Shown piece after piece: positions 18,216 to 50,369 of a DNA stretch of 64,000 nucleotides (position 1 is its first letter; each line of letters opens with the position of its first letter). The notes below the pieces were generated by a model. The model was not told where the DNA came from. It was given only the letters and a program-made list of their open reading frames with translations, and made no database searches. The position numbers and the translations under genes are program-made. The stretch lies in the NCBI RefSeq assembly GCF_037042905.1, contig NC_087251.1, forward strand, positions 28,708,001 to 28,772,000. Direction: 5' to 3'. Source of the stretch: Lytechinus pictus (lineage: Eukaryota).

Positions 18216-19146
18216 GAGAAGAACGAATATACCCACCCTTTCCTAACAGTTTTATGCGAACGAGAAGCACGGGCTGAAAACTTTTGATATTCAAACCTGA
18301 CAACTGAAAGTGTCATTTTTTCGCATTAGTTTTTAAATTAGATATGCATCGACAAATAAGCTTTCAGAGTAAAATAAATGGAATATAAAAATAATCACTT
18401 TTAATGTATAAAAGTGAAATTTCAAATTACCTCACCATGGCACCCCGCACTGATACACAGAATGTTTTCGACCCGAGATAGCTTTGAAGCTGCTGAAAGG
18501 GATTACTCTTCAAGGTTCAAGGATATCACGTATGGAATTTTTTTCTTCATGAACACATTTTAAAAAAATGGTCTTCAATTGCCCTTTTTCATGTGACTCT
18601 ATGAAATAACCTACATTGTAATTCAACATGCATTTAAGGCACTTGTGTTTGCCTGGCGGGGAGGGAGGGGGCGCAATTTTTCGAAAAGTACTACACGCCA
18701 AAATCAGATCAAATTTGGGCTCCCGGCCTCCCTGGATCCGCGCATCCACATCCCCATTTAGCGACGACCCTTCCCAGATATCTCTTTTCTCATTTTATTT
18801 TACCTAAGTTTTCTCACTCTTTACCCCTTTCCCCTCTTTCTTTCATTTTTTGTTTGTTTGTCATGACTTGACAAATCATAGGGGGCGGTCACCCCTGTAC
18901 ACCCCATCGTGGCTCCGTCCCTGTATCTAACATCTAAATGAGCGGAAAATGGCAAAGGCAAATTAATGCATTAAACAAAAATTTAGAGATCCACAGTAAG
19001 CCTTGAACTCATGGTTCACTATATCCACATCTTTCATTTTTGTTGCCGTTTTCTCTCAATTTTTATAGCCCTTTTGTAAACGGCAAATTTTGTCCATTTT
19101 GCACAGCTTTGTTCACTGTGGAAGAAACTTTCGAGTTCATACTGGC

Positions 19147-19270
19147 TAGCCTAGCCAGGCGGCTTCTAGAGAGTAAAAATCATTTACTAACGTAAGTTTA
19201 CTTTCGTATATGAGAGTAACCTTACGTTAGTAAATGATTTTTACTCTCTAGAAGCCGCCTGGCTAGGCTA
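19147..19270. repeat. 124-bp spacerless palindrome (62-bp arms, 3 mismatches), probable collapsed MITE
   Basis: TAGCCTAGCCAGGCGGCTTCTAGAGAGTAAAAATCATTTACTAACGTAAG... is mirrored about TA|TA at 19208/19209. Confidence 0.92.
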
Positions 19271-20647
19271 ACCCCCGTTCCATATCTTTTTGATTAATAT
19301 CGGACAAAATAATCTTGACAATGTGGGACACTGCTGGCCTTGATGAATGTCAACTGAGGCTTGGATTAAAATTACAAGGCTTCATTTTACCTATTTGTAT
19401 CGTTCTGGATGCCTATGCGGTTAAGCACAGTTATAGACTGGATATGCTTCTATTTAAGATCTGGACATAAACAAACAAAACAGTCTAGAAGTAGAAACCT
19501 GCTTCAATTCTGTCGACCACTAACTCATTTTTTTTTTACTAGCTATACGCATGTATAATAGTCGCCTAGTTATCTTCCGGAGTTATCAATGATAAAAAGA
19601 GAAATTTAAATGGCTTTTCTTACCTCCACATAGTCCGCTTGTGGTTGCATCTTAAATGCTGAAAATGTACACTGCAGGCGTTAAACGTTTGATGAATAAA
19701 ATTACTAAAACATTGAAGAGTTTCTGACAACACCAATTTAATATCTCTAGGTGTTCTTTCCTTTTCAAAGTCAACAATCAATTAGCCCGGTCGGCAGTGC
19801 TGATTGAAAAACAGTCAAGTTGTTATAGATCCCCTATCCATCAAACATTCCTTGCATGCTGGATCATGTGGAACAAGATGCATTCTAGTTGTGCCCATTC
19901 GTGCATTGTCTCTATTATTCTGGGGGATTTTTTTCTTCAGATTTTCCCGCCTTTGTGCGCTCGTGTCTCTTCAGTACGCATTACGTAATCGCCAAGTTCA
20001 GCGCCACTGAAAGGTCCGATTTTATGGTTTTCAAGCTTTTTGTAGAATCAGCCGTTGAACATATTATTATCAATAAAGCCCTTTGCACCTTTTTTATCCC
20101 AAATCTCGAATCGAAGACCATTCACTCATTAAAATCGTTAATTATTGAATTATTATGTGTTCTGTAACATGATATTAATATGCAAATTATGTCAATGGAT
20201 TAATTAGGAATTAGTAAACAGGTGTCTCATGTCAATCGTCGTGTAATTTTTGCATACATGTTGATCTAAAATAAAAAGGAGTGAGCACGGTGACCGATCC
20301 AAATATTAATTTGGTATAGGCCTAATTCTGGAATTATTGTTCATTTACTGTTCAGATTAGTGAGAAATACACATCTAAGTAATGAATAACAGGCACAGAT
20401 CCGAATGAACGGGGGCACAGACTTTCCTCCCCTTCAGCTCTAAATCGCCATTGTTACTCCATCCAGTAGGCCTACCCTTTTTTTTGTAGGACGAGGACAG
20501 ACCCGCCCTTTTTTTTTAGGAGGGCGTAAAAAATCTTTAAACCTGATGATCCGCTTCTATTAAGTAAATGATTGTGTGCACAATTATAGATAGGTTTTGA
20601 CAATTTATTTAGAGGGGGTGCAAGAGCGCCCCGAACCCACTATATAC

Positions 20648-23600
20648 TAGTCGATTTGACAATCCCATAGGCTCAATACACCAACCTAGCAATGTTCTTT
20701 CCGATGAAGTTTTTTTCTTGATTTGTGTTCCTATGGGGTCCTAGAACAAATTCAGCTTGGTTGCCCAAAGTTGCCGTTTGGGCAATTTTGCTAATTTGCA
20801 TAAATCCAAAATGGCCGCCAGATGCCATCTTAAAAACTTAACTTTTGAATCCCTTGCCCTAAAATGATTAGTAATGACTCTTTTAGGGGTTTAGGAGTGT
20901 GTAGAATCCATTTCTATTATCATTTTCGCAATATAAGGTCATCTTCAGGTCAAATCCAAGATGGCCACCAGATGCCATCTTGAAAAATTGACTTTTAATC
21001 CCCTTGCCCCCGAATGACGAGAAATACCTCTGTTTAGGGGTTTCGGGGTATGTATAATCTCTTTGTGCTATCTATTTTGCAATATAATGACATCTTCAGG
21101 TCAAATCCAAGATGGCCGCCAGATGATACCACGATGATACCATTTTGAAAAATTAATTTCTGAACCCTTTGTCCAAGAATCATTTTTTTATGTCCAGCCA
21201 TATTTTTCTAGTGAAAGGACTTCAAAGTATTATTTTTTTAACTAAAAAGTGATTTCTCCGTATTTTTCAGAAAATTTGTTAACTTATTACCTTCCTTTAT
21301 AATTATCATTGGACTTTTCGTCCTGACAAAAGCCTTTGACTTGGTCAGCACGAGTGCACTTTTGAGCCACCTGTAGAAGATAGGCTCCACAAGCGCCAAG
21401 ACTGATCCATGGTCATATCATTCCATGTGAACAGTTTGCTACAATGCTGGAACATCTAGTAGCTTCCCTCAGTTCCTGTGAGCAGTGGCGTGAAGCAATT
21501 AGGCTGGGCCTGGCCCTGACACTCAGGATCTTCTTCTCCATGCTTCCCCAGTATTTGGCGAAAGCACAGAAGGCATCTACATATCCGTATACCAGAGCAG
21601 ATGGGAAACTCTTCAACATCGACCGGCTACGTGCCAAAACAATGGTCAGGATGGTTTTCATTCGTGAGATGTCGCCCCTGCCTTTCATAAAGAAGCTGGA
21701 GTAGGCCTACAAGACCTAGTCATAAAGCCGCCTGTTTTTTGCATGTACATGATGTAAGGAGTTTGGATGACCCATCAGACTGTAAGACAGAAATCCTGAT
21801 CGACTCAAGACACTGACTGTCCTCCAGATATCTCTATCAACAGCATGCACTAGTTTGGTTGTGGTGGACTCCTCACCTACCTTGCATTGACTATCTGTCT
21901 CTAGTTCCCCTTTACTGGACAAGGAGATAAGCATCAGGATAGGAAACTCTGTGACAGCCATGGCCAAGCCCCTGAACGGAAATAAGTCCTGGAAAACGTG
22001 CACCGATCAAGAAAAGCGACTAAACACCTTCCATGTCAGCTGCCTCGGACGTATCCTACACATTAAATGGCAGGACAGAGTGAAAAATATAAGGCCCTTC
22101 AGCGTACGTGCATGCTGGCATCCTCAGCTTATTCTCGCTCCTTTGGTGACTCATGTTCGCCGGATGAAACTTTGGCAAATCCTAGAAAGGATTCGCCAAT
22201 GTAAGGTGAGCTGTGTGATTGGTCCCCAGATAGATCACATCCGTTATAAACACACCTGCAAACGTGACATAAAACTTGCCGCCATAAACACTAACACTTG
22301 TGAAGATGTAGATGATAGTCGCCATTTATGGAGAGCTACTAAGTACAGGGGTCAAGACGTCAGAAAATAATCGGAATGCTACATTGGCAGGCCAAATACC
22401 AAGGAGGAAGGCTAGGGCAGCATCTCTATCTGAACCTGTCTCAGCGCCATCCTCCTTCATCTGTACAAAATGTGCTTTAGAGACTGCCACTCTAGAGCGG
22501 AGCTCTACAGCCACTCTCGAAAATGTAATACCTAGCGCCCTACACCATCGTCTTTTGAGACGAACTTATGCCTACCTATCATTGGACACTTTGATTTAGG
22601 AAAAATATGGAGAAAACACTTTCAAATTCAAATAAGACTTTAAAGCCTCTTCGGTACAAAAGCATGGATGGACATTAAAAGAAATAAAAATACAAAATTG
22701 ATCATAGCCGAAACCTACAGAGGATTCTCTTTTAGGTGAGCAGTAAATGTCGAACGTCTGACAACATCTCAGATCTGACTTCCCCTTGAACTAAAAATTG
22801 AGAATTAATAAAATAAATTAGTATTTTTACTGAAATCTCCTTACATATGCTCTTACACTATAAGACTCGGAAAGTAATTTTTCAAGATGGCGCTTGGCGG
22901 CCATCTTGGATTTGATCTGAAGACTATCCTTTATTGCAAAATAACATCAGAAATCAAATCAACATACCAAATGGTTCACGAATAAAGTTATTATTCATGA
23001 TTCTGGGGCAAATGGTTCAAAAGTTAATATTTCAAAATGGCGTCATCTGGTGGCCATCTTGGATTTGATCTAAAGAGGACCTTATATTGCAAAATAGATA
23101 GCAGAAAGAGATTTCACACACCCCTAAAGCCCTAAATAAAGGTATTACTCATCATTCTGGGGCGAGGGGTTCAAATTCAATTTTTCAAGATGGCGCTTGG
23201 CGGCCGTCTTGGATTTGATCTGAAGACTATCCTTTATTGCAAAATAACATCAGAAATTAAATCAACATACCAAATGGTTCACAAATAAAGTTATTATTCA
23301 TGATTCTGGGGCAAATGGTTCAAAAGTTAATATTTCAAAATGGCGTCAGCTGGCGGCCATCTTGGATTTGACCTGAAGATGACCTCATATTGCAAAAATT
23401 ATTATAGAAATGGATTCTACACACCCCTAAACCCATAAAAGGAGACATTCCTCATCATTTTAGGGCAAGGGATTCAAAAGTTAGGTTTTTAAGATGGCAT
23501 GTGGCGGCCATTTTGAATTTATGCAAATTAGCCAAATTGCCCAACCGGCAACTTTGGGCAACCAAGCTGAATTTGTTTTAGGACCCCATAGGAACACGAA

Positions 23601-24029: not shown

Positions 24030-24640
24030 TATTTCCGCTCTCGCTTCACCGGCGCATGCATAATACATAACCTGCTCAAGAGGATTACATGGTGCTTAAG
24101 ATATTAAATTTTGAAGTCAATATAAACCAAAATAATTCTGAATGGGATTCGAGATGTCATTATTTTGTTTAGCAGGTCATGCATCATGTTCATATTTCTA
24201 AACAGGTGCTTAAAATGTCCCGTTTTCAGGTCGGAATATCAAAGGGTTTTCAGCTTGCGGGAGTTAGTTATCCTTTTCACGAGTCCCTGCGAACAGTTCG
24301 TATGTCCTTTTTCATGTTAGTATACCAAACATTTCTAATCGTGCTTGCATTATTGTTTGGTTAGATATGCATCTTGTTCATGATTACATATTAATCAAAA
24401 AATTTTAGAACTAAGAATGGTCCATTTTCAGTTTTCAATACATGGATAATATCCAAAAATTTCAGCTCGCGGTCCGCGCTCGCATTATTCATTTAGGTCT
24501 TATGGAAAACCTTATCTTGTTTGTACTAATAATAATAAAATGCACTTAAAATTCAGTCTTTAGGACTATTGCCAGCTTTGTAGCTCTTTGAGCGGCTGAT
24601 CAGGAAAATGTGTATGAAAATACGCCCCCCTTTTATTGGA
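24030..24640. repeat. Further degenerate copy of the GCTCGCGCTTCGCGCTCGC repeat family
   Basis: TTTCAGCTCGCGGTCCGCGCTCGCATT at ~24460 and related units at ~24250 and ~24340. Confidence 0.6.
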
Positions 24641-25614
24641 AAAACCTGCCCCCTCTCTTTCTCTTCTAGTCCTTAGCTATATCTGGACAGAATTTTCCCT
24701 TGTACACTGATTAGGGAAATAACTATAACAGTTTTATTTTACTAAAATATGAAAATAAACATTCTTGTGTTTGAGTCAATTTCATTTTCAACAAAAATAT
24801 AGTAACATGATGATACACTATTAAAAAGCAATTGCAAAAATTGGCAATATTTGGCCCAATAAAAAGACCCTGTCAAAATGAGCCAAAATTTTGGAATGCG
24901 CTACATAATAATTGGGTTTTGGTTCAATACATATTCTCCAACATATAAGCTCTTTTTTTACAACTCTTTTGAAATAAGGGACCGAAAAGAAATGGATTGC
25001 AAATTATGCCTAAATAGGAAAGTCAAAGTTCATATACTGATGAAAATGATAGCTAAACAGTAATTTAATTTCAAATAGACTTAAAACCTTTTTAATGCAT
25101 TAAATTTGTTTTTCAGGAACCCCTATAGAGGCTCCAGCAAAACTTGCATTTGTGCATTTATTTGTTTTTCATTTATAACATTTCAAATGAAAATTTTTCT
25201 TCCATTTCACAAATTTCTAAATTTTTCGTAAACTCATTACGCCACTGATATATGTGATAATTGCATATAAATTAAATAGCATGCAGCTAACTTTTCATTA
25301 ACCCACAACTCTGCATTAAAGGGGAAGGAATTAAGCACACAGTAGGTCCATGCTAAGAACATAATGCCTTTTACTTGATAAAAAAGACTTTCATCAGTGC
25401 ATCACACTTCCAAACCAAACATGACTCAAAAGACCCTTATATTACTTCATTTCTTGATAGATTTTATTAGTCAAAATATCATCAACATAAAAAATAGAAA
25501 TAACGGTGATTTCATTTAACATATATACACTTTATTTTGGCACTACCTGGCAGAATCCAAGATCCAAACTATCACAATACCAAACATTATATAGCAAGTA
25601 TAAAACAACAAAAT

Positions 25615-26346
25615 TGAAGAGCTCACTTGCAAAAGGAGTTAGGTCCATTTTTCATCAAATTTGATTTTTTTTTTGTCTCAAAATTTTTTTTTTGTGGTTA
25701 GGTCCATTCCAGTTTGTTTGCAAAAGGGATTAGGTCCAAACATAATTTTTTTGGAAAAGAATATTTTAAAAAATATGAAGACAGGTAGATTTCTTTTATA
25801 CCCAATTTGATGCTCTCATGGTAGGATATCATGAAAATTTAGTTTCACATAAGAATATTGCAATATGGGAGAATAAAAAAAAATGATTTTCTTGGAGTGG
25901 ACCTAACCCCTTTGCAAACAAACTCTTCTGAAGAGCTCATTTGTCAAAAGGGGTTAGGTCCATTGTTCATAAATTTTACTGTTTTCTGTCTCAAAACCAC
26001 TACATTTTTAGTAGCTCTGATGAAAACAGAAAATCTGAAATTCACATGAAAACGTGAATAAAAGTGGGAAAGAAAAATCACTTTTCTAATAAAAATAGAC
26101 TGGATTCATTTCGGTTTGCTTGCAAAAGGGGTTAGGACCACAATGATAATTTTCAAAATAATATATAGAAAAAAATTGAAGACAGGTAGATTTCTTTTAC
26201 ATCCAATTTTATGTTCACATGATAGGGTAGTACATCATGACAATTAAGTTTCTCATAAGAATATTGCAATAAGTGAGAATAAGAAACATGTTTTTTCTCG
26301 GAATGGTCCAAAGTGGACCTAACCCCTTTTGAAACCAAACTCTTCA
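25615..26346. mobile_element. Head-to-tail dimer of a short TIR element (GAAGAG...CTCTTC ends)
   Basis: Copies 25616-25928 and 25930-26345 each start GAAGAGCTCA(C/T)TTG..AAAAGG.GTTAGGTCCA and end TGGACCTAACCCCTTT...AAACTCTTC. They share internal sequence. Confidence 0.7.
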
Positions 26347-26564
26347 GATATAAAATCAGTCCTTTTGACACCTCAGGACAAGACACAGATTACAAAACAG
26401 CAATAAACTAATATTTCCAATGTTGCCTTACAGTACACATCTCTCAATATCAGATTTTCTCTTTCACCCAAAATTATTGAAACTGTAAATTTGACTCTTT
26501 TGCTTCCATTGCACACCCCCCCCCCCAAAAAAAAAAGTGATCCAGCTCATACACTACAAAAATA

Positions 26565-26798
26565 CAGTGATGCCAAAAAGTGAGCGAATCCCACCAGAAA
26601 ATGAAAATATTAGAAGTGTTCAAGTTCTACCAATCTTTTATATATTCAATTGTGAAATCAGGTGATAAAAAATAACATTCAATAAAGTTTATTTCTCTGG
26701 GCTATTAAGCGGACATAGTAGTGTTGCTGTCTACATCCAACACTCAGCATGAAGGAGTTCATTTTCTGGTGGGATTCACAAACTTTTTAGCACCACTG
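26565..26798. mobile_element. Tc1/mariner-type MITE
   Basis: TA|CAGTGATGCCAAAAAGTGAGCGAATCCCACCAGAAAATGAA ... TTCATTTTCTGGTGGGATTCACAAACTTTTTAGCACCACTG|TA: ~41-bp TIRs and a TA TSD. Confidence 0.9.
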
Positions 26799-27279
26799 TA
26801 TATAAATGTGAAAATTATCCTTACCCGTTATGGCAAAGAAATTAAAATTATCAATTTAGAGATTTGAGAAATATGTCATAACTGAGAATTTTCCCTTTTT
26901 TATATATAACACTTCTCAAGCATGGAATGGGCTGGTGATTTTGAAGTTTACATTGACCTTTGATATTTATTTGTAGCTTTCAGGAAAGCAATCACTAAGA
27001 TTAGAAATTCATAAGGCTCTTTCTTTAAAAGGAAAAATACAAACATTACTAAAAGAGGGAGCTAGATAGTAAAATTCATATTTTCACAAAGAATCCATGG
27101 AAGAACAAAAATGTAATGGTCATAACAGTATGGTCTTTATATATATATATATACAATCAATATCAAATCAATGATAGAAATGTATAGATTCAAGGTACAT
27201 ATTTACGCTTTAATTACAAAGAACCCACAAAACTGCTGCTGTGTCCCTCTTTTCTGATCAAAACACGACCTTCCCATCT

Positions 27280-27478
27280 CACTACGCCTCCACACTTGTC
27301 TTAAATTAGGCGCAAGTACTACTACGCTCTCAGTGCGCTGCGTTCGTGCTTTAACTAGGCTGTTTCCGCACTAGCTACGCTGTTTCTACGCTTCCCCAGA
27401 CATACTTACGCGCGTCTTCTGCTCTCGCTGCTATAAAAAGGCCGTAGCCGATACACTAGAAAGTTTGCTGCAAAAATG
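27280..27478 (+). promoter_or_regulatory. Putative Pol II promoter: CpG-rich patch with five TACGC motifs, TATAAAA at 27432, ATG at 27476
   Basis: Local CpG enrichment in AT-rich surroundings. CTATAAAAAGG is followed by AAAATGGCT, which opens a 48-codon ORF starting MAPKRKSK (stop 27620-27622). Confidence 0.45.
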
Positions 27479-27597
27479 GCTCCCAAAAGAAAATCAAAGA
27501 GATGGAGAGGGGAACAGTTGATGAGGAGGTGGATGTTGGTGAAACACCAATGTTTGATTTGGACAAAAAAATATAATTGTAGACTCCCAAGCATTCA

Positions 27598-28400
27598 AGG
27601 AGTGGCTAAGATTCCAGAGTAAAAAAGATGTGAGAAGCTTCTTGAGCCTTGCTTCATACTACAGGAGATTCATACATGGATTTGCAGAAATAGTGAAGTC
27701 ATTTTCATGACTTAACAGGAAAAGCAAAACAACTCTCTTTGATGGAACACGGAAAGCAAGCATTTCATGAATGAAGCAAATACAAAATGATGTCCCTATC
27801 CTAGGCATTTGTGTCGCAGGAGGCTAGGACGCAAGTGAAGTTGCAACGAGTACCATTTTCTCCAATGCTATAACAGAATGGAGAAGTTTAGCTGAAAATT
27901 CATTAAACAGCAGAGAAACTATTGTGGGACTAGAAGCAAAATACTTGCAGCAGGGTGCTCTTTGAAGAAATACAAACCATATCTTTATGGAAGAAAGATA
28001 CAGGTATGCACTGACTTTTAAGAATCCAGAGGGAGAGATGCCCAGATTGCTCAAACAGATGATTTTGTGATATCATCCAGGAAAGAATCATGGGAATGCC
28101 GATAGGTTGTCCTGACAGGCATTAAAGTAGTGAGCATGTGAAAAAGGAATGGACAATGCTCCAGAAACTAACATCAGCCCAACGTAGGGATCTGAGATGA
28201 GGACAGTTAGGAATATTACTGCTAAATCAACTTTCGAGCAGATGTACATGAGACTCAAATGGAAGAGGAAACAATTCAGTGGCCAATGACAGCAAAGGAG
28301 AAAAGGAAGGAGAGGCCTGCACGAACAGTCCTTTCCCTTTTACCAGCATCAAGCAAGACATATTGGTCAGGTTGGGACCAGATGGAAGTCGACAATGGTG
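27598..28400 (+). mobile_element. Degenerate Gypsy/Ty3 pol fragment (RT-RNase H connection, RNase H, linker)
   Basis: KKDVRSFLSLASYYRRFIHGFAEI; DASEVATSTIFS; LKKYKPYLYGRK; FKNPEGEMPR; HPGKNHGNADRLS; KTYWSGWDQMEVDNG. Many stops and frameshifts. Confidence 0.88.
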
Positions 28401-28934
28401 AAAGGTTTGAGCCAGATGATTTGAAATCTCTTGAAGTGTCAGATAATGCTGTTAGAGACACTGAAATGTAAACCCTATAGAGAAGAATGGGAGAATTTGG
28501 TTTGGAACAAACCAACAGATCCTATTGATGGAGAAGAGAACAGTGGAAATAAGGAAATTGTCTCTGTGGATGGGAGAAGAGACTTTATGTGACTTCCCTT
28601 TCACCTGTCTTCATAACATGTTCTTGTTAAAAACACTTGTACCCTCCATTCTCCTGCTGCCTTTGCTAAAGAAAATCCTAGCTCACAAAGATTCCCTCTA
28701 TACCGGAGAAAGAAACCCCAATACTTTAAGATCAATACCACTTGGCAATGTAGTGGTCCACTCTGTAGACCTTCTTTTTATTAAGTTTTCTTTTTGACTG
28801 CCAACTGACAATTTTTCCCCCTTATCAATATTTGGAGGAGTCGGAAGGATTCTTCAAACATAAATAAGTGTTCTTTTATATGTACAATTTCCTCCTGATT
28901 TTCACTAGTCTGTATTTTCCTTTTTTTTCATTCT

Positions 28935-29080
28935 CTGGGTTCATGCTTCTGCATACCTTCCTTCACTTCAATGATAACAAACAACACATACCACATGGAC
29001 AGGAAGGATACGATGTATTGTACAAAGTTAGACCAGCTGTGGACATTCCCTGCTCTATGTACCAACAAGCCTTACCAGGT
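28935..29080 (+). mobile_element. piggyBac (PGBD-like) transposase fragment; copies ~31607-31752 and ~34285-34430
   Basis: FMLLHTFLHFNDNKQHIPHGQEGYDVLYKVRPAVD matches the piggyBac RF..I..FLHF.DN....D.L.K.RP motif. Confidence 0.8.
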
Positions 29081-29082
29081 CA

Positions 29083-29420
29083 ACATCGGTCCTAAGCAAC
29101 GGCCTGAAAGGGTTTCTCCTCAGTTGAGAGTTTACTGTATGATTGGTGTCTATCTCAGAGAATACAGACATGAATGGCCACAAGTTGGGAAAGTCACCGC
29201 AATTGAGCAGGACAGCATCACAGTACACTGGTTTTCAGGGACAGCAACATCTACATGGACCCCATTGTACCACAGAGGTAGAAAAGGACAAGAACCATAT
29301 AGTCAGACCATTCCATCGTCAAATACCATCACACATCCATTTCATCTCACTGGAACTGACAAGCTTCCACAGGAAGTGCAGCGCCAACTTAGAGAAAAAC
29401 ATGAAGAACTCTACTCGTAG
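29083..29420 (+). pseudogene. Intact-looking C-terminal domain fragment (~110 aa) of an unidentified, probably transposon-encoded protein; open in copies 1 and 2 (ends 32092), frameshifted in copy 3
   Basis: IGVYLREYRHEWPQVGKVTAIEQDSITVHWFSGTATSTWTP...HPFHLTGTDKLPQEVQRQLREKHEELYS*. It has a beta-rich Tudor/SH3-like pattern and is followed by UTR-like DNA with AATAAA near 29745. Confidence 0.5.
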
Positions 29421-29894
29421 TACTTGAGTAGATGCCACATTATGTTTCTTGGGTCTGTACGTCTCTACATGTGTACATGTATATCTGTCCATCCCATTTC
29501 CATTCTTACGATAACTTTGGAACTGCTTTGCGGATCAGTTTGGGCTTTCTTTTTATGTATTAATTTGGGAGGGACAATGAACTGATTAGATATTGGGTTG
29601 AAGGTCATACATGTAGATCTAATTTTTACCAGAAAATCTTGTCCTCACAATATCTTATAGGGCTAAACCAACTTTGTGCAAGCCATGTGAAATACAATGA
29701 CAAATTGTGTTGCCTATAGCATGTAAATATGTTTTGATGGATAAATAAAGAAGCAGACATATATAGGCTTTGATATGAATTATGTCATTTTTAAGATATC
29801 TTTGACTGAATGTTCCCACTCATTATTCTGTCCTAGGGACACTTCATATAACTCTGCATTCTGTAAGGGAAAAAGCATCTGGCATACCCTGTTA

Positions 29895-30160
29895 CTTCAT
29901 ATTTTTCATACATTAAACACCCAGGACTTCTATTCTGCAAGGGTGAAGAATGCCTTGGATATGGCATCAAAGGCTGGGAGCATTTGTTAGTATACTCGGC
30001 AGACAACAAGAATAAGCTTCGCGTAGGAGATACCACATGACCGTCGATCGTCACATTCAAGTTGGGCATCTCTTCACGACCAACGACTCACCCAACTACT
30101 ACGACCATGACTTTCCGGTACCCGGCTTTTCTGCTGACTCGGTCTGGGTATCTGCAGATG
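29895..30160 (+). mobile_element. Zator-like DDE transposase fragment; copies ~32567-32832 and ~35238-35503
   Basis: Across frameshifts it reads LLVYSADNKNKLRVG...HLFTTNDSPNYYDHDFPVPGFLLTRSGYL, resembling the Zator S.DDK..V.IG...DHD.....L.PS.Y motifs. Confidence 0.55.
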
Positions 30161-33100
30161 GAGCACATGCAGTTGATGGCCTGCAACCTGCTTGGAAGAG
30201 GGGGGTTTTGGGTAGTTTAATGACTTTACTAATATTTCTGTTTTCCTTTCACTACTTCCAGATTGCAATCAACAGCCATAAGTCTAATTGTTGCACCTTT
30301 GAAATTCACTTGCCTGAATTAAATGCCTCAATTAAATTACTGCCTTTTTGTACCATGCAGGATTCAAGGAAAGATCTGAGCTGTTTCATCATTTGAACCA
30401 TGGAAACTCTTTGTTGATCCAGTGTTCATTCCATTGGAAAAACAAGAATTCATGTGCCAACATCCTGATAATGCTAGACTCGGAATTTGTCTCCAGGTGG
30501 AAAACCAACCAAGAGGTGCTATATCAAATCCCAACATTGTGGAACAACACCCAGATGACACCAGAAGAATGGACATGGAAACCCAAGGATAAGTATGAAA
30601 TGATGTCTCGTGATAAAACAAGGCATATTGTGTAAGAAAACATACAACATACCAAGAGAGATGTATATCTACCAGACTGTGATCCTAAAGTCATTACTGC
30701 ATAGAGTTTTGCATGATTTACAAAGACATCCTTCGATCTTCAGGACATTTTGGTGCACAGCGCACACTGCACAGAGCACATACATCATTCTACTAGCCAT
30801 ATATGCATAAAGATGTAGTGGTTTAATGCAATGTAAGGCATATGAATCGTTCCGCAGAACAAATCCACAGCACAGAGCAAATCTGATGAACAAGGGATAA
30901 ATCAACTTTCAAGCAGATGTACATGAGACTCAAATGGAAGAGGAAACAATTCAGTGGCCAATGACAGCAAAGGAGAAAAGGAAGGAGAGGCCTGCACATA
31001 CAGTCCTTTCCCTTTTACCGGCATCAAGCAAGACATATTGGTCAGGTTGGGACCAGATGGAAGTCGACAATGGTGAAAGGTTTAAGTCAGATGATTTGAA
31101 ATATCTTGAAGTGTCAGATAATGCTGTCAGAGACACTGAAATGTAAACCCTATAGAGAAGAATGGGAGAATTGGGTTTGGAACAAACCAACAGATCCTAT
31201 TGATGGAGAAGAGAACAGTTGAAATAAGGAAATTGTCTCTGCGGATGGGATAAAAAACTTTCTGTGACTTCCCTTTCACATATCTCCATAACATGTTCTT
31301 GTTAAAAACACTTGTACCCTCCATTCTCCTGCTGCCTTTGCTAAAAAAAATCCTAGCTCACAAAGATTCCCTCTATACCGAAGGAAGAAACCCCAATACT
31401 TTAAGATCAATACCACTTGGCAATGTAGTGGCCCACTCTGTAGACCTAGTTTTTATTAAGTTTTCTTTTTGACTGCCAACTGACAATTTTCCCCCCTTAT
31501 CAATATTTGGAGGAGTCGGAAGGATTCTTCAAACATAAATAAAAGTGTCCTTTTATATGTACAATGTTCTCCTGATTTTCACTAGTCTGTATTTTTTTTT
31601 CATTCTCTGGGTTCATGCTGCTGCATACCTTCCTTCACTTCAATGATAACAAACAACACATACCACATGGACAGGAAGGATATGATGTATTGTACAAAGT
31701 TAGACCAGCTGTGGACATTCCCTGCTCTATGTACCAACAAGCCTTACCAGGTCAACATCGGTCCTAAGCAACGGCCTGAAAGGGTTTCTCCTCAGTTGAG
31801 AGTTTACTGTATGATTGGTGTCTATCTCAGAGAATACAGACATGAATGGCCACAAGTTGGGAAAGTCACAGCAATTGAGCAGGAAAGCATCACAGTACAC
31901 TGGTTTTCTGGGACAGCAACATCTACATGGACCCCATTGTACCGCAGAGGTAGAAAAGGACAAGAACCATACACTCAGACCATTCCATCGTCAAGTACCA
32001 TCACACATCCATTTCATCTCACTGGAACTGACAAGCTTCCACAGGAAGTGCAGCGCCAACTTAGAGAAAAACATGAAGAACTCTACTCGTAGTACTTGAG
32101 TAGATGCCACATTATGTTTCTTGGGTCTGTACGTCTCTACATGTGTACATGTATATCTGTCCATCCCATTTCCATTCTTACGATAACTTTGGAACTGCTT
32201 TGCGGATCAGTTTGGGCTTTCTTTTTATGTATTAATTTGGGAGGGACAATGAACTGATTAGATATTGGGTTGAAGGTCATACATGTAGATCTAATTTTTA
32301 CCAGAAAATCTTGTCCTCACAATATCTTATAGGGCTAAACCAACTTTGTGCAAGCCATGTGAAATACAATGACAAATTGTGTTGCCTATAGCATGTAAAT
32401 ATGTTTTGATGGATAAATAAAGAAGCAGACATATATAGGCTTTGATATGAATTTTGTCATTTTTAAGATATCTTTGACTGAATGTTCCCACTCATTATTC
32501 TGTCCTAGGGACACTTCATATAACTCTGCATTCTGTAAGGGAAAAAGCATCTGGCATACCCTGTTACTTCATATTTTTCATACATTAAACACCCAGGTCT
32601 TCTATTCTGCAAGGGTGAAGAATGCCTTGGATATGGCATCAAAGGCTGGGAGCATTTGTTAGTATACTCGGCAGACAACAAGAATAAGCTTCGCGTAGGA
32701 GATACCACATGACCCTCGATCGTCACATTCAAGTTGGGCATCTCTTCACGACCAACTACTCACCCAACTACAACAACCATGACTTTCCGGTACCCGGCTT
32801 TTCTGCTGACTCGGTCTGGGTATCTGCAGATGGAGCACATGCAGTTGATGGCCTGCAACCTGCTTGGAAAAGGGGGGTTTTGGGTAGTTTAATGACTTTT
32901 CTAATATTTCTGTTTTCCTTTCACTACTTCCAGATTGCAATCAACAGCCATAAGTCTAATTGTTGCACCTTTGAAAGTCACTTGCCTGAATTAAATGCCT
33001 CAATTAAATTACTGCCTTTTTGTACCGTGCAGGATTCAAGGAAAGATCTGAGCTGTTTCATCATTTGAACCATGGAAACTCTTTGTTGATCCAGTGTTCA

Positions 33101-35789
33101 TGCCATTGGAAAAACAAGAATTCATGTGCCAACATCCTGATAATGCTCGACTCAGAATTTGTCTCCAGGTGGAAACCCAACCAAGAGGTGCTATATCAAA
33201 TCCCAACATTGTGGAACAACACCCAGATGACACCAGAAGAATGGACATGGAAACCCAAGGATAAGTATGAAATGATGTCTCGTGATAAAGCAAGGCATAT
33301 TGTGTAAGAAAACATACGACATACCAAGAGAGATGTATATCTACCAGACTGTGATCCTAAAGTCATTACTGCATAGAGTTTTGCATGATTTACAGAGACA
33401 TCCTTCGATCTTCAGGACATTTTGGTGCACAGCGCACACTGCACAGAGCACATACATCATTCTACTAGCCATATATGCATAAAGATGTAGTGGTTTAATG
33501 CAATGTAAGGCATATGAATCGTTCCGCAGAACAAATCCACAGCACAGAGCAAATCTGATGAACAAGGGATAAATCAACTTTCAAGCAGATGTACATGAGA
33601 CTCAAATGGAAGAGGAAACAATTCAGTGGCCAATGACAGCAAAGGAGAAAAGGAAGGAGAGGCCTGCACATACAGTCCTTTCCCTTTTACCAGCATCAAG
33701 CAAGACATATTGGTCAGGTTGGGACCAGATGGAAGTCGACAATGGTGAAAGGTTTGAGTCAGATGATTTGAAATCTCTTGAAGTGTCAGATAATGATGTC
33801 ATAGACACTGAAATGTAAACCCTATAGAGAAGAATGGGAGAATTGGGTTTGGAACAAACCAACAGATCCTATTGATGGAGAAGAGAACAGTTGAAATAAG
33901 GAAATTGTCTCTGCGGATGGGATAAAAAACTTTCTGTGACTTCCCTTTCACATATCTCCATAACATGTTCTTGTTAAAAACACTTGTACCCTCCATTCTC
34001 CTGCTGCCTTTGCTAAAGAAAATCCTAGCTCACAAAGATTCCCTCTATACTGAAGGAAGAAACCCCAATACTTTAAGATCAATACCACTTGGCAATGTAG
34101 TGGCCCACTCTGTAGACCTAGTTTTTATTAAGTTTTCTTTTTGATGCCAACTGACAATTTTTCCCCCTTATCAATATTTGGAGGAGTCGGAAGGATTCTT
34201 CAAACATAAATAAAAGTGTCCTTTTCTATGTACAATTTTCTCCTGATTTTCACTAGTCTGTATTTTCTTTCTTTTTTTCATTCTCTGGGTTCATGCTGCT
34301 GCATACCTTCCTTCACTTCAATGATAACAAACAGCACATACCACATGGACAGGAAGGATACGATGTATTGTACAAAGTTAGACCGGCTGTGGACATTACC
34401 TGCCCTATGTACCAACAAGCCTTACCAGGTCAACATTGGTCCTAAGCAACGGCCTGAAAGGGTTCCTCCTCAGTTGAGAGTTTACTGTATGATTGGTGTC
34501 TATCTCAGAGAATACAGACATAAAGGCCACAAGTTGAGAAAGTCACAGCAATTGAGCAGGACAGCATCACAGTACACTGGTTTTCAGGGAAAGCAACATC
34601 TACATGGACCCCATTGTACCGCAGAGGTAGAAAAGGGCAAGAACCATACAGTTAGACCATTCCATCGTCAAGTACCATCACGCATCCATTTCATCCCACT
34701 GGAACTGACAAGATTCCACAGAAAGTGCAACGCCAACTTAGAGAAAAACATGAAGAACTCTACTCGTAGTACTTGAGTAGATGCTAATATTTTCTTGGGT
34801 CTGTACGTCTCTACATGTGTAAATGTATATCTGTCCATCCTATTTCCATTCTTACGATAACTTTGGAACCGCTTTACAGATCAGTTTGGGCTTTCTTTTT
34901 ATGTATTAATTTGGGAGGGACAATGAACTGATTAGATATTAGGTTGAAGGTCATACATGTAGATCTCATTTTTACCAGAAAATCTTGTCCTCACAATATC
35001 TTATAGGGCTAAACCAACTTTGTGCAAGCCATGTGAAATACAATGACAAATTGTGTTGCCTATAGCATGTAAATATGTTTCGATGGATAAATAAAGAAGC
35101 AGAGATATATAGGCTTTGATATGAATTATGTCATTAAGATATCTTTGACTGAATGTTCCCACTCATTATTCTGTCCTAGGGACACTTCATATAACTCTGC
35201 ATTCTGTAAGGGAAAAAGCATCTGGCATACCCTGTTACTTCATATTTTTCATACATTAAACACCCAGGTCTTCTATTCTGCAAGGGTGAAGAATGCCTTG
35301 GATATGGCATCAAAGGCTGGGAGCATTTGTTAGTATACTCGGCAGACAACAAGAATAAGCTTCGCGTAGGAGATACCACATGACCGTCGATCGTCACATT
35401 CAAGTTGGGCATCTCTTCACGACCAACGACTCACCCAACTACTACGACCATGACTTTCCGGTACTCGGCTTTTCTGCTGACTCGGTCTGGGTATCTGCAG
35501 ATGGAGCACATGCAGTTGATGGCCTGCAACCTGCTTGGAAAAGGGGGGTTTTGGGTAGTTTAATGACTTTACTAATATTTCTGTTTTCCTTTCACTACTT
35601 CCAGATTGCAATCAACAGCCATAAGTCTAATTGTTGCACCTTTGAAATTCACTTGCCTGAATTAAATGCCTCAATTAAATTACTGCCTTTTTGTACCGTG
35701 CAGGATTCAAGGAAAGATCTGAGCTGTTTCATCATTTGAACCATGGAAACTCTTTGTTGATCCAGTGTTCATTCCATTGGAAAAACAAG

Positions 35790-36460
35790 AATTCATGTGC
35801 CAACATCCTGATAATGCTCGACTCGGAATTTGTCTCCAGGTGGAAAACCAACCAAGAGGTGCTATATCAAATCTCAACATTGTGGAACAACACCCAGATG
35901 ACACCAGAAGAATGGACATGGAAACCCAAGGATAAGTATGAAATGATATGAAATGATATAATTAAAATGATGTCTCGTGATAAAGCAAGGCATATCGTGT
36001 AAGAAAACATACAACATACCATGAGATGTATATCTACCAGACTGTGATCCTAAAGTCATTACTGCATAGAGTTTTGCATGATTTACAAAGACATCCTTCT
36101 TCAGGACATTTTGGTGCACAGCGTACACTGCAGAGCATTCTACTAGCCGTATATTCATAGAGATGTAGTGGATTGTTGCAATAAATGTAAGGCATGTGAA
36201 TCGTTCCGCAGTACAAATCTACAGCACAGAGCAAATCTAATGAACATCACTACTTCACAAACTCTTAGAGAAGACGTTTGCAGACATAGATAATGGATCA
36301 TTTTAGTAAATACCTGAATGTGTATGCAATGAAAGATCAGACGGCTCAATCAGGAGCTAGGCACATTTTTAGGATTACCTTCGGGTGCATGCATGGAGTG
36401 CCTGAAAGCTAACACACATATCAAGTGAGGCAGTTTGGAAAAAATAATCAAGCTAAATTG
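35790..36460 (+). mobile_element. Gypsy integrase fragment (linker, HHCC zinc finger, start of catalytic core); its 5' part also ends copies 1 and 2
   Basis: QTVILKSLLHRVLHDLQRHPSSGHFGAQRTLQ; FY*PYIHRDVVDCCNKCKACESF; MDHFSKYLNVYAMKDQTAQ; HGVPES*HTYQVRQF. Confidence 0.85.
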
Positions 36461-36529
36461 TGAGTGTACTGGACTTTGGTGGCAGAATGCCTTTTCACAT
36501 TTTTATTTTGTATGTGTGTTGTATATATA

Positions 36530-36600
36530 CAGTGGGTCCCACAAAAAAAACGAAACCAAAGTTTAGCGATGATTTATCATAACTAAATCACAAATACAAT
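36530..36600 (+). mobile_element. Orphan left end of a Tc1/mariner-type element
   Basis: TA|CAGTGGGTCCCACAAAAAAAACGAAACC, the same TIR family as 54882. No matching right end seen. Confidence 0.6.
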
Positions 36601-36821
36601 CCTTTCGAAGGATTGTGTTTCATTTGCCACCTTAACTGATAAATGAAATCAAATGAAGCTTCATAAGAGTATTCATATACCTTCATGTTGGCAAAATTTG
36701 ATGATGGTTCACTCATCAAGGGCCAAGATCTGAATTTGGTCCACAAAAATGCACCAACAATTACCTAATCATTTTATTACGAGATTTTAATCCCTTCTCT
36801 TTGTAATTGTACATCATTCAG

Positions 36822-37133
36822 GCAATCGCTCCAGGCGCAGCTTTCCCGACTTGCTTCAGGCCTAGACCCAGAGAAGATCACAATGATATGGGTGCTGCGT
36901 GCAGATCCACTTTCAGGGGGCAATAAGGGCGATCAAGCACCCTGATTTCAATCCTGCTGGCATGCTGGATATCATATTCCGCACCTCGGCAATTGATAGG
37001 ATTGAATTGAAAGGTGCTGTTGACCTTGGGGGACCAAGAAAGGATTTTTTTCGGCTCTTGCTCCGCCAGATGCATCACCATCCATGCTTTTATATGCACA
37101 ATGATGGGATGCATCTGGGTGTCAATCACAAAG
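36822..37133 (+). pseudogene. Isolated exon encoding the N-terminal part of a G2E3-like HECT E3 ligase domain, with a +1 frameshift in a G run
   Basis: Acceptor CATTCAG|, donor |GTAAAA. It reads QSLQAQLSRLASGLDPEKITMIWVLRADPLS/GAIRAIKHPDFNPAGMLDIIF...GAVDLGGPRKDFFRLLL, containing the HECT D.GG..REFF motif. Confidence 0.7.
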
Positions 37134-37361
37134 GTAAAATCCGTATAAAGAAAGATGTGAAATTAAAAGTGTAATTCTATGTGTGTAGAATTTATGGGGA
37201 GTTCAGAGGATGCTTTGCATTTTTGGCCTTGTCCCGCCTCATTCGCATTTGCCGCCGCAGAGATTTTCTGGCTGCGTTTCTAAAATTTGGCATGAAGGTG
37301 TGTTATGATAAAGGGAAGACACCTATCATTTCTGGTGTTGTTGTTGTGGTTGGACAGGTAC

Positions 37362-40300
37362 TAGTCCGGCAGCCCAGGAGATTTATTCAACCGAAAGCCG
37401 GACAAGCAAATGACCCCATAGCTGGATGGCATGGACCCTGAAGTTTACAAAAATGCATTGCTGCCGGGTTCTATCCGTGGTCTTCCCTCCGAAATGACGT
37501 AATACATGACGTCACTACAAAATGGCCCTATTTCACAATTTTTTAGACATTTTACACATAGCATGAAGTCAAGGGAAAATATATCAGTCAAATCATGCTT
37601 GTTTTGTATGAAACTTTCAAAATGTATTGTTCAAATAATGCACAAGAGATACGCAAAATTTCACGAACAGAAATTATTGTTTACATATGCAAATTACGTA
37701 ATGGAATTTGCATATCATTAGTTTGGGAGATTTCTTGCATCAAAAATTGTCGAAAATTGATTTAGAAATTTATTTTCTTTTTTAATGTACTTTATTTAAT
37801 ATATTTCCTCTCAAGTATAATATCATTCTCTTCATCTATATCTCTACTTTTAGAAAATATATGCCAGTAATTGGAAATGACATTATAGACTGTGATTTCA
37901 GCCCCTTTTCAATATGATGCGCACATAGAAATCGTGCGTTTTTTGCCTATTTTCACCATATAGCTGAGGTGTGCGAACGATATGCCTACTTTATTGATGT
38001 TTCCTGCATTTTGCATGATATTTAATCTTCCAAACAACATATTTTCATCTCCACTATATCTCTGCTGATAAATAAATGATTTCAGCAAATATTGATTGCC
38101 CACTGGGCAGTCTATAGGCTTCGTTTTCAGCCCAGTTTTCAACAATGAACCTATACCATGTATGACTGCATTATTGTTGTCGAGTCGGAAATGGGAGTTC
38201 CTTTGCACCATCATATTATATTTTTCACTCAACGTTTTTGTATTTGCCTGAAGTGTTTAGTTAATGAATCTTGATGTTCCCTTTGCAAAATCGTGTCCAA
38301 CGGGGTTCAATATTGATATCTTTGGCGACCCTCTTGGTTTTTTTTTAATGAAAAGTAATTATTTTCATATTTTTTGCACAGAGTGTGACAATGGGACAAT
38401 TTGAAATGAATACGCATTTCACTATGATTCGGATAGTAGAAATCGATTGAATTCGTTTTCTGGACAGCTAATATATTTTGAAATAAAATTCATCCCGAAA
38501 TTTTGCATGTGCATTGATATCTATCTGTTCAATCATTAACATCAACAACTATTGCACAATATCAGCATTCGACACGAAAGTGGACATAATATACCGATAA
38601 TACTGAAACGCTTCACGACAGTATGTATGTCTTAATTTGCTTAGTTAAAGGGCAAATACCATATATTACTCGATATTGCGATAAAATGACACCAAAAAGC
38701 AACCTCTGTGACAGTATAATTTTTGTCTATCAGCTACATTATAAAGAAATGAGGGCGCAGCAAATCCTACCCCCCCCCCCTGATGGGACCGCCGGAGTCC
38801 CCCATCCTTTTTTCGTATTTTGCCCATTTCTTGGAAAAGTCTACATTTTTGGAGCCCCATTGAAGGGAAAAGACGTTTCTGCTTTGCAGTAAAGTCACTT
38901 TTACTGTTGTTTAACCACTTAGGGATAAAAGAGTAGAGTTTTCTCTATCGGCTACATATAAAGAAGTGCTGGTACAGCAAAGCCTATCCCCTCTGGGGAC
39001 TGCCAAAGTTACCCACCCTTTTACGTATTTTACCCATTAATGGGAAAATATGCTAATCTGGAGCCCCGATTGAGGCAAAAAACGTTTCTGATATGGAATA
39101 AAGCCACTTTCATTCTTTTGAAACTCCATGGAGATAAAAGAGTAGAGTTTCCTCTATCTGCTACATATAAAAAAGTGCTAGCATATTGAAGCATACCCCC
39201 TGAAGGGAGCGTCGAAATCACCCATCCCTTTTTCATATTTCACCTATTTATGGGAAAATGTGCTATTTTCGAGCCCCCATTGAGGCAAAAAGTGCTGCTG
39301 CTATGTAGTAAGGTCACCTGTATTGTTTTTAAACTTTATGGAGACGAAAGAGTAGAGTTTCCTCTATCTGCTACATATAAAGAGGTGTTGGCATATTGGA
39401 GCATACCCCCTTAGGGGGTCGCCGAAATCCCCCACCCCTTTTCAATATTTTACCTATTTATGGGAAAAATGCTATTTTCGAGCCCCCATTGAGGCAAAAA
39501 TGTTTCTGCTATTTAGTAAAGCCAGTTTTATTCTTTTGAAACTACGTAGAATTAAATGAGTAAGCTTTCTTCTATCTGCTGCTAATAAGTGGTTGCACAG
39601 CAAAGCCTATCCCTTCTGGGGGTTCCTAAAGTCACCCACCCCTTTTCCATATTTTTTTCCAATATATGGGAAAATATGCCAATCTTGGAGCCTCTGAAGA
39701 AGGAAGAAGTCGATATGCTAGCACTCTTTTTACTCTTTTTTATGTAGCTGATAGAAAAAAACCTATTTTTTTTTATTTCCAAGTGGTTTCCAAAATCAAA
39801 ACTAGCATAACTATATAGCAGAAATGCCCTTTTGCCTGAATGGGGGCTCAAACACTGCAATTTTTCCAATAAAGAGGGAAAATAGACGTAAAAGTTGGAA
39901 GAGTTCGGCAGCCCCTGATGGGAAGGCTTCATTGTGCTACCACATCTTTATATGTAACTGATAAAGAAGGTCATACTTTGTCATCTTTATGTGCTTACAA
40001 AACAAAAACAAGGGCTTTACTGCAAGGCAGAAACACCTTTTGCCTCAATGGTTCTCCAAAATGACAAATTTTCCGAGAAATTGGCAAAATACAAAAAAGG
40101 ATTGGGTGACTTTGGCAGCCCCCTGAGGGGTAGGCTTTGCTATGCCCTAACTTCTTCATATGTAGCTGATAGAGAAAAACCTACTCTTTTGTCTCTAAGT
40201 GATTTAAAAGAAAAAAATACATACCCGAAACAAAATTTTGCCACATTGGGGGCTCCGAAAAGCACGATATCATAATAGTCAAGCTACGGATAAGGGTGTG

Positions 40301-41733: not shown

Positions 41734-42498
41734 TACCCCAACTGTTCTCGTTACCAAATAGATTTCTTAGTACAGAGTAAGATGTTGATGGAAAATTCTC
41801 AAGTGAAATTCTGGGTCAAAACTATATTTTCACGTAAACTCTAAAACAAGGAATACGTTTTGATTTTAGTTTACAGGTAGTTTCTTTATATGTTTAACTG
41901 TTGTTCCTGAAATAGCAGTTGTATTAATATCATCCCAAGTAAAGATTTTTATTTATTTTTGGGGTTGTCCGTCTAAATCCCACTTTCTCGTCGAAGCTAT
42001 GCCATCGATTTACAACCAAATAAGAATGACATTCTTGACCTGACTGCTAGCAGAATTTTACTGTGTGTGAACTATATTGAATTGTTTCTTAAGCATCCAG
42101 TTTATATTTCTCATTTTCTATTGTTCCAGCTCTTGAAACAGGCCTGTACAAGACTTGGGGAGTCCTTCTGTCCCTGTCACTTGTCCATGGTGGACCCGGG
42201 CCACGTTGCTTTGCCCAAGAAACGTTCAACCGGATTGCCGACCCTCAATCTCAAGGAGAGATCAAGCTGTCCCATGTTAGCGATCCAGACATGAGGAAAA
42301 AATTGAAAAGGTCATTAAATTACTCTATTCCAAATCTTTCATTTTAGGACACATTTTTTTATTTATAAACTATTGGTTTCTAACAGGTGGCACAACCTCT
42401 AGTAATCAAGTGTCACATCATCTGGGGCCATAGGAAAAGCATTTTGTAGATATATCAAGTATTGTGTTTAGTATTTACTTCCGAATAAGCATTGAGCC

Positions 42499-42604: not shown

Positions 42605-42949
42605 ACCATTTATTCCCTGCACCTATATGTAAGCTTAATCAATAAGGCTGATAAAGCTTTGTGAATGATTGTTGGTATCTTTAAAATACCAATGAATTTG
42701 TTGATGATAGCCACTACGTAGCCCAAGTTTTGTTATTCCAACCCCTAACCCTTAGTTGAGTCAGGATTTTGTAGTGACGACAAGCGGACCCGCAGATTGT
42801 CAACCAGAAAGTTGCAGTAAAGTGGTCTTCGAGAAGAAGTCCCGTTCATTCACTAGCATGTGGTCAAGAGACTAGATATGGTGGTCTTTGCCAAGTGTAC
42901 AGATAACCAGTGCGATCACAGCACCAGGAATCTTGTGTCGCAAATTTCC

Positions 42950-48363: not shown

Positions 48364-48462
48364 ATCATGACAGATCTTGAAAAAGCAGAGGTGTTACGAA
48401 GAGTGCAGAGGGTCTGTGCCCATAACAGAACAAGACCACAACCTCAAACCTATCAACAGTTG
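48364..48462 (+). CDS. Putative internal coding exon (99 bp, phase 0) of an unidentified gene
   Basis: TTTTTTTCATGTATATTAACAG| ... |GTAAGT. Open frame IMTDLEKAEVLRRVQRVCAHNRTRPQPQTYQQL. Confidence 0.55.
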
Positions 48463-50264: not shown

Positions 50265-50369
50265 ATGACAACTGTCTACGAAAGTATGTCGTTCCAAAAA
50301 AGAGTATCCAAGAAACAGTTTATGGATAGATGCAGACATCAGTTATATAAAAAGAAGTACTTTGAGTAA
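50265..50369 (+). CDS. Putative terminal coding exon, in phase with 48364-48462
   Basis: TTGTTTTTTATATTACAG| acceptor. It reads MTTVYESMSFQKRVSKKQFMDRCRHQLYKKKYFE*. Confidence 0.5.
   Translation: MTTVYESMSFQKRVSKKQFMDRCRHQLYKKKYFE

Follow-up and report, generated by a model that had tools for sequence, protein, structure and literature searches.

A one-strand, tandemly amplified patchwork of transposon gene fragments in Lytechinus pictus and its possible relation to piRNA source loci

In the genome of Lytechinus pictus, short coding fragments of unrelated transposon superfamilies are joined end to end on one strand at a locus of contig NC_087251.1. The whole stretch of DNA that we analyzed (64,000 nucleotides [nt], C7:28708001–28772000, hereafter the window) consists of a 27-bp satellite that reaches position 15854, an island of 42 kb, and a 186-bp satellite that begins at position 57867. 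Probes beyond the window put the total length of the left satellite at ~34 kb, and on the right five of five probes were still satellite, out to 78 kb past the window end, so that this array is at least 85 kb long; the 186-bp satellite is 95–98% homogeneous and has long open frames on the + strand. The patchwork locus may adjoin centromeric-type heterochromatin, and because the 42-kb island lies between two large satellites, there is little space for a host gene. Self-comparison showed that positions 28223–36246 (+) consist of three tandem copies of a 2.67-kb unit, in line with the tandem amplification proposed in a preliminary description made from the sequence alone. The unit boundary is a single novel junction with 6–7 inserted bases, occurring twice. 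Contigs of runs X1 and X3 cross patchwork junctions, namely the tandem-unit junction (X1) and four others, three of which occur in X1 record 1 or 7 and in X3 records 11 and 15; therefore, the array is not an assembly error. Relatives were sought in the genome of 812 Mb, and in these genome-wide DNA searches for relatives and junctions only the best candidates were scored. The features are collected in Table 1.

Table 1. Position, strand, and supporting evidence of the features in the window (position 1 is the first base of the window; E, expectation value; aa, amino acids; ORF, open reading frame; LINE, long interspersed nuclear element)
Feature	Position	Strand	Evidence
Abundant LINE piece	21384–22367	+	at least 150 genome matches
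Single-orientation RNA coverage	27224–30765	− by usual library convention	reads from copies 2 and 3 also fall here
Gene start piece with TATA box at 27432 and ATG	27425–27560	+	77–81% DNA identity to C2:5486111-5486227
Gypsy-1 reverse transcriptase end, RNase H, and linker	27588–28462	+	tblastn to L017 pol aa 574–879, E 1e-18 and 2e-23
Tandem copies	28223–30897, 30898–33569, 33570–36246	+	2.0–3.0% substitution difference between copies
Gypsy-1 integrase C-terminal tail	28470–28740	+	tblastn aa 1202–1342 (copy 2), aa 1235–1273 (copy 3)
Pyrimidine-rich noncoding stretch	28741–28939	+	no DNA relative found
piggyBac transposase exon piece	28940–29083	+	43% aa to L049, E 1e-12
DUF7869 transposase-like last exon (coding 29079–29420) and ~500 nt of 3' sequence	29072–29923	+	85% DNA to C9
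Zator-like transposase exon piece and first ~150 nt of next intron	29926–30355	+	72% DNA to C10
LINE-1-ORF1-like C-terminal end	30359–30603	+	E 3e-6 to 6e-6; 47% aa over 30 to L051 ORF
Gypsy-2 linker end and integrase zinc finger	30604–30891	+	77% DNA to L044; Pfam Integrase_H2C2, E 3e-6
Gypsy-2 in copy 3, on into first part of integrase core	35971–36462	+	tblastn L044 aa 768–940, E 5e-44
End of small abundant repeat	36520–36600		at least 19 matches elsewhere to 36501–36559
HECT-like exon 1 with flanking intron	36822–37133	+	81–85% DNA to four copies in L053 on C8; P0004, P0005
HECT-like exon 2	42131–42310	+	74% over 23 aa, E 2e-10
Second Zator-like piece (aa 424–469)	42800–42931	+	E 2e-6 to 9e-6

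The patchwork contains pieces of two Gypsy elements. In the first, Gypsy-1, the end of the reverse transcriptase, RNase H (Pfam RT_RNaseH, E 9e-6), and linker are followed after 7 nt by the C-terminal tail of the integrase, a piece that the preliminary description had overlooked; relative to the intact element L017 on C18, ~1.04 kb is missing (L017 positions 5836 to 6879). Because the linker is followed by its own integrase tail, colinear with L017, Gypsy-1 is a single, internally deleted element. Gypsy-2 ends in copies 1 and 2 at the position of the unit that corresponds to ~30891 and in copy 3 continues further into the integrase, this longer stretch having 11 matches at at least 10 other places in the genome. 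The pol proteins of L017 and of the Gypsy-2 relative L044 (C15) are 34% identical, which confirms the earlier suggestion of two Gypsy families, and the pieces of both have many stops and frameshifts. The intact L017 also has a third sense ORF (positions 7081–8064), which lies between pol and the 3' long terminal repeat (LTR) and contains C2H2 zinc fingers.

The remaining pieces of the unit derive from other superfamilies. The piggyBac exon piece is related to an ORF of L049 that matches DDE_Tnp_1_7 (E 2e-56), and the noncoding stretch before it is probably the 3' part of the piggyBac intron with a decayed acceptor, because an acceptor occupies the corresponding site in each of the two piggyBac relatives. 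The domain previously noted as an orphan C-terminal domain (29079–29417) corresponds to the last exon of P0001, a DUF7869 protein of 935 aa (89% aa identity; PF25273). This piece begins at the splice acceptor of its relative, an exon start common to the four clearly shown of five relatives, and copies 1 and 2 have an open exon frame. We considered and rejected the possibility that the piece is an entire last exon with a poly(A) site at its end, as the AATAAA signal at 29744 lies 180 nt before the end of the piece. DUF7869 is a dispersed multi-exon family found at at least 17 further places in the genome and may be a Sola-type DNA transposon. Between the exon in the array and that on C9, there are 16 silent and 10 replacement changes in 113 codons; therefore, the two copies come from different active lineages, and the C9 copy is not the donor. 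The DUF7869 proteins (29079–29417; L026, L028, L034–L036) have a C-terminal small beta-barrel domain on its own last exon; the fold predicted for the domain in the array is a small beta-barrel plus a helix (predicted local distance difference test, 75), and a comparison with PDB yielded no match at E 0.001, the best being chromatin-reading BAH domains, which were not significant (E 0.03, template modeling [TM] score ≤0.45).

The coding part of the Zator-like piece (29928–30175) matches P0003 (E 3e-8), and of the relative's intron of ~485 nt the array keeps only the part listed in Table 1. Excerpts of a published study describe the Zator superfamily transposase as akin to prokaryotic ISAzo13 (PMC10045372), and this defining relationship was found through the structure of the relative P0002, which in the Atlas matched clusters of the ISAzo13-family PF07592 (TM score 0.53–0.60), with an NCBIfam ISAzo13 match at E 0.016. 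The second Zator-like piece could belong to this element as its distal end. The LINE-1-ORF1-like piece, also overlooked before, has at least nine weak genome matches, and its family label comes from Atlas look-alikes annotated “LINE-1 type transposase domain” (0.93), to be taken as a lead only. None of the eight open ORFs of the region matched Pfam. The piggyBac, orphan-domain, and Zator-like pieces named in the preliminary description were thus all recovered on the + strand by matches to relatives. In copy 3, short local duplications of the TATGAAATGA type (35935–35970) lie precisely at the junction between the ORF1-like and Gypsy-2 pieces and are such as are left by repair with templated insertions.

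The array is followed by the end of a small repeat, presumably Tc1-like by its TA-CAGTG motif, which lies just outside the stretch described as lacking termini, and then by two HECT-like exons. An exon of a HECT gene had been placed after the array; the coding exon was confirmed on the + strand at 36822–37133. The HECT label derives from the weak relative P0005 (E 1.5e-6), which UniRef names HECT domain-containing, and from putative HECT motifs; searches of Pfam and PDB with these exons gave no HECT match. Because exon 2 directly follows exon 1 in P0004, the HECT-like part is a gene remnant with introns. The predicted protein P0004 itself has two HECT-like exon copies and a second HECT-like piece, and among its other segments are some that presumably resemble a BEN domain and an ISL2EU transposase; the gene model may have been pieced together from a comparable patchwork at another place.

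Two Gypsy, piggyBac, DUF7869, Zator-like, and ORF1-like pieces thus all lie on the + strand between 27588 and 36462, which confirms the earlier view of a one-strand patchwork of unrelated superfamilies. All 41 tblastn matches in 15901–57860 were on the + strand, although this count is not blind, relatives of these pieces having served as queries; Pfam searches of six minus frames (27300–30899 and 35950–37299) gave one unrelated match only (E 0.018). Before allowing for the choice of window, the chance that seven independent protein-supported pieces share one strand is 1 in 64. The pieces are 130–1150 nt long and map to the interior of their relatives' genes. At 36 junction pairs, the longest exact terminal repeats were 8 nt (inverted) and 10 nt (direct), compared with a background of up to 9 nt each in 268 random pairs and with 16–40 nt in three ordinary elements of the window that have terminal inverted repeats; duplications of 2–3 nt are below the reach of this test. 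The absence of termini at the junctions, claimed before, therefore held at this resolution.

These observations bear on a further explanation, to which we give very little credence: the patchwork may have been carried as cargo by a Helitron or a Pack-type DNA transposon or assembled by LTR template switching, or it may be read in the sense direction as a chimeric transcript that starts from the TATA box at 27432. Helitrons collect fragments stepwise and, like the present locus, hold several DNA-level gene fragments in a row, as described in excerpts of PMC3288121; furthermore, the patchwork opens with a TATA box and an ATG, and a patchwork on C8 likewise has the 5' portion of a transposon gene at its start. 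However, Helitron capture, according to the same excerpts, requires TC and hairpin-CTRR ends together with dispersal. No 3' hairpin plus CTRR was found on either strand of 26901–37400 (perfect GC-rich stems only), the junctions lack terminal repeats, and among the best candidates scored, patchwork junctions occurred nowhere but in the three tandem copies; the introns that the pieces keep argue against capture of mRNA. By these end, junction, and intron tests, the patchwork is not a Helitron, a Pack element, or a retro-copy. The earlier suggestion of rolling-circle capture accordingly found no support. A search for an outer element end upstream (24580–27600) was dominated by an abundant repeat at 25615–26350 and revealed none among the best 40 of 3394 candidates. 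The sole relative of the gene start piece at 27425–27560 sits in a same-strand patchwork on C2.

RNA reads from four of eleven listed runs were aligned to 26300–30890. In X9 and X10, two paired total-RNA runs depleted of ribosomal RNA (rRNA), positions 27224–30890 received ~31 and ~50 read-equivalents, respectively, all with the first mate on the + strand, and covered 17 and 21 of 24 bins, while the depth in the opposite orientation was 0 in all 24 bins. The repeats at 26300–26915 showed both orientations in these runs. Among the variants listed from reads inside the array, 37 of 37 were bases of copies 2 or 3; therefore, the reads come from this array and not from dispersed transposons. In other words, the patchwork region is transcribed from one strand at a low level. 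By library convention, this RNA is very probably the minus strand, antisense to every piece; it would be sense if the convention were the rarer one, as a transcript from the TATA box would need, but the reads continue upstream of that box. No transcript start, end, or splice joint was seen in 26300–30890 in these two runs. The preliminary description had suggested a source of Piwi-interacting RNAs (piRNAs) and had noted that antisense piRNAs would call for minus-strand or bidirectional transcription; this idea gains support, because the single orientation in X9 and X10 probably reflects minus-strand transcription.

The anatomy of the pieces indicates how they arose. Judged by their sequence, they are DNA-level remnants and not copies of spliced mRNA, because intron ends are kept, as in the Zator-like piece (~150 nt of intron) and the HECT-like exons with their introns; retro-copies of spliced mRNA would be free of introns. 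Deletion was demonstrated twice, inside Gypsy-1 and as a 485-nt skip in the RNA reads (29707 to 30193; three reads in X9 and one in X10) that has a 2-nt match at its ends and does not occur in the assembly. An intron was rejected as an explanation of the skip, which has no splice fit on either strand in any equivalent placement; as a deletion, it would create a new termini-free junction from the DUF7869 flank to the Zator exon. The pieces differ in age, the Gypsy pieces being full of frame breaks while the DUF7869 exon is open in two copies. The internal deletion of Gypsy-1, the kept intron ends, HECT-like exon 2, and the deletion in the reads make a “stitched library” in place of nested insertion, as envisaged earlier, unnecessary, and heavy deletion of an old nest, the other possibility raised then, accounts for the anatomy and is compatible with a piRNA function. 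We therefore favor an origin in which whole elements were trapped in one orientation and then deleted down; origin and function are separate questions.

Similar patchworks occur elsewhere in the genome. The patchwork at C8:6262000-6287500 (L053, L054, L055) covers 25 kb on the minus strand and is denser than the array, with irregular duplications; all 25 tblastn matches, mostly to four HECT-like copies, were on the minus strand, and Pfam found Helicase_C (E 1e-5) and Transposase_21 (E 0.015) on that strand and nothing on the three + frames tested. Its scraps include HECT-like, RecQ-type helicase, EnSpm-like, and other transposon genes, to which we would presumably add hAT-, Sola-, and L2-like ones. 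At C2:5481000-5488000 (L015), four transposon-gene remnants, including P2RX7_C (E 8e-6), follow one another on the minus strand; the labels of the others are our assumption. In contrast, in 20 kb examined on C9, a DUF7869 remnant lies on the − strand and a Gypsy remnant on the + strand. Because one-strand patchworks recur on C8 and C2, chance is a less likely explanation.

An alternative to trapping and deletion is that the locus never held these elements whole and acquired short stretches from the interior of transposon genes one by one, through template switching or homology-guided repair with DNA or unspliced RNA as the source, so that a library of small-RNA guides was formed. The youngest piece (DUF7869) has lost both ends and yet has an open frame; it starts at the splice acceptor of its relative, where the piggyBac protein match overlaps it by ~12 nt, and at its other end it shares eight of nine bases with the start of the Zator relative. 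Furthermore, the HECT-like exon occurs four times in L053 on C8 with 100–200 nt of intron per side and different neighbors, and no remnant of a terminus was found at any junction in the window. However, deletions would be just as likely to leave such short matches, which occur at both ends of the DUF7869 piece, and the sequences compared are not those of the true donors; Gypsy-1, the pair of HECT-like exons, and perhaps both Zator-like pieces are colinear remnants of longer elements, and a plain-deletion junction was observed in the reads. Direct capture is thus improbable in our estimation. Equally doubtful is its wider form, in which sea urchins would keep dedicated loci that capture short exon-centered stretches of any active transposon gene in a fixed orientation, in addition to trapping whole elements, and transcribe them antisense, as an acquired, spacer-like library of Piwi guides; the pieces would then have been shuffled and duplicated, and the patchworks on C7, C8, and C2 together with P0004 would be one class. 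The C8 patchwork is the best place for testing direct capture.

We consider as the leading interpretation, with about an even chance of being correct, that the locus is a deletion-compacted, strand-biased transposon nest that would work like a unistrand piRNA precursor with broad targets. Elements of many superfamilies would have landed over time in a noncoding transcription unit read from the minus strand, and those insertions antisense to the transcript would have been kept. Repeated deletions, some at short matches, would then have removed termini, most introns, and spacers, leaving exon-centered scraps; this is seen directly in Gypsy-1 and in the 485-nt deletion and is presumed for the other junctions. 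One duplication and unequal exchange tripled the 2.67 kb. The low-level transcription from one strand, in all likelihood antisense to all pieces, would finally supply RNA for piRNAs that guide Piwi against DNA transposons, LTR elements, and non-LTR elements. Lytechinus has somatic piRNAs according to excerpts of PMC12479628.

Several observations weigh against this interpretation. Runs X9 and X10 come from one study of unknown tissue, ~6% of each run was used, the strand was assigned by the usual stranded-library convention, uncalibrated on a known gene, and the RNA level is only ~0.4–0.7 fragments per kb per million by our arithmetic. Matches to transposon proteins cover 2295 of 3634 nonredundant patchwork bases (63%), which leaves little sequence unexplained and speaks for the interpretation, but the pieces themselves determined the choice of queries, and the figure is therefore not fairly comparable with the remainder of the window. 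When 28-mers were compared with the relatives found, the numbers matching in at least 24 of 28 positions were 0 of 1126 for Gypsy-1, 28 of 465 for Gypsy-2, 0 of 119 for piggyBac, 0 of 218 for the ORF1-like piece, 41 of 409 for the Zator-like piece (against a decayed copy), and 525 of 825 for DUF7869 (against a truncated copy), the only piece that pairs well with a relative found. Most pieces thus appear too diverged to target the intact relatives found, closer ones of which may have been missed, and the patchwork would now be mostly a record of past invasions. There is also an exon-like stretch at 56608–56808 on the − strand, single-copy and with two stops, which is the sole candidate for a minus coding piece in the island and for which no relative was found, and two possible micro-exons with good splice signals lie on the − strand at 18434–18495 and 19624–19658.

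Some of these points fit an unlikely, though not negligible, alternative, in which the same compacted nest has no silencing role: the reads would be nascent RNA of an intron or a noncoding minus transcript, and insertions in the sense direction, whose poly(A) and splice signals halt transcription, would for that reason have been eliminated. rRNA-depleted libraries catch nascent RNA, the level is low, and the reads revealed no splice joint; pairing with intact relatives is poor; the micro-exons may be parts of a gene on the minus strand; on C10, a host-like ORF of 449 aa lies next to the Zator relative, which is antisense to it; and an antisense bias of intronic remnants, which likewise oppose the local transcript, is established in human genes (excerpts of PMC3517506). 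However, the bias reported in those excerpts is about two to one at most and not all-or-none, comes with no enrichment of coding scraps, so that exon-dense scraps are not predicted, and requires a host gene. None was found here: a host gene would have to start within 37.2–57.8 kb or span the satellite of at least 85 kb, and two simple exon scans, which also missed known exons, revealed no convincing minus-strand gene. The recurrence of sister patchworks of the same texture also speaks against this alternative. A CpG-rich stretch near 19800–20130 lies close to the micro-exons.

The rest of the island holds further features. The abundant LINE piece at its left is presumably RTE-like by its motifs, and a near-perfect palindrome with 65-bp arms and no spacer lies at 19144–19273. 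On the right, a 94-bp tandem repeat of MADF-type coding sequence (+; Pfam E 0.002) forms two arrays at 46830–47437 and 52335–53506, set apart by exon-like stretches (48364–48462 and ~50265–50350) and other insertions. Two candidates were not confirmed, namely 36600–57000 as one IS3EU element with a convergent transposase, for which 56608–56808 was without a relative, and 53909–54727 as CR1-like, with one match at E 0.008 and none in Pfam.

The locus can be compared with known unistrand clusters. Like Drosophila flamenco and the flam-like clusters described in excerpts of PMC10643416, it is noncoding, its transposon fragments lie mostly in one orientation, and transcription in X9 and X10 is from one strand, here probably antisense. 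In those clusters, however, the bias comes from Gypsy alone, and piRNAs and function have been demonstrated, whereas the present evidence is sequence and RNA reads, and piggyBac, DUF7869, Zator-like, LINE-ORF1-like, and accessory genes share the bias in pieces of 130–1150 nt; extending beyond Gypsy, the bias places the locus outside the strict flam-like definition. Endogenous viral element (EVE) cluster 38 of Aedes aegypti, as described in excerpts of PMC7161354, likewise combines continuous antisense RNA with fragments that differ in origin but share one coding direction, but it spans 143 kb, contains viral and LTR fragments, is highly expressed, and has demonstrated phased piRNAs, whereas the locus here contains transposon genes only, measures from a few kb to ~30 kb, and is expressed at a low level.

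The origin and content of piRNA source loci is an open question that has been studied mostly in flies, mosquitoes, and mammals. If our interpretation is wrong, the locus would be a decayed nest with an unusual strand bias. If it is right, these coordinates would name one-strand clusters of all superfamilies in a breedable and editable deuterostome invertebrate, and the segregating deletion, together with pieces of different ages, would make it possible to test trapping and later compaction against direct capture.

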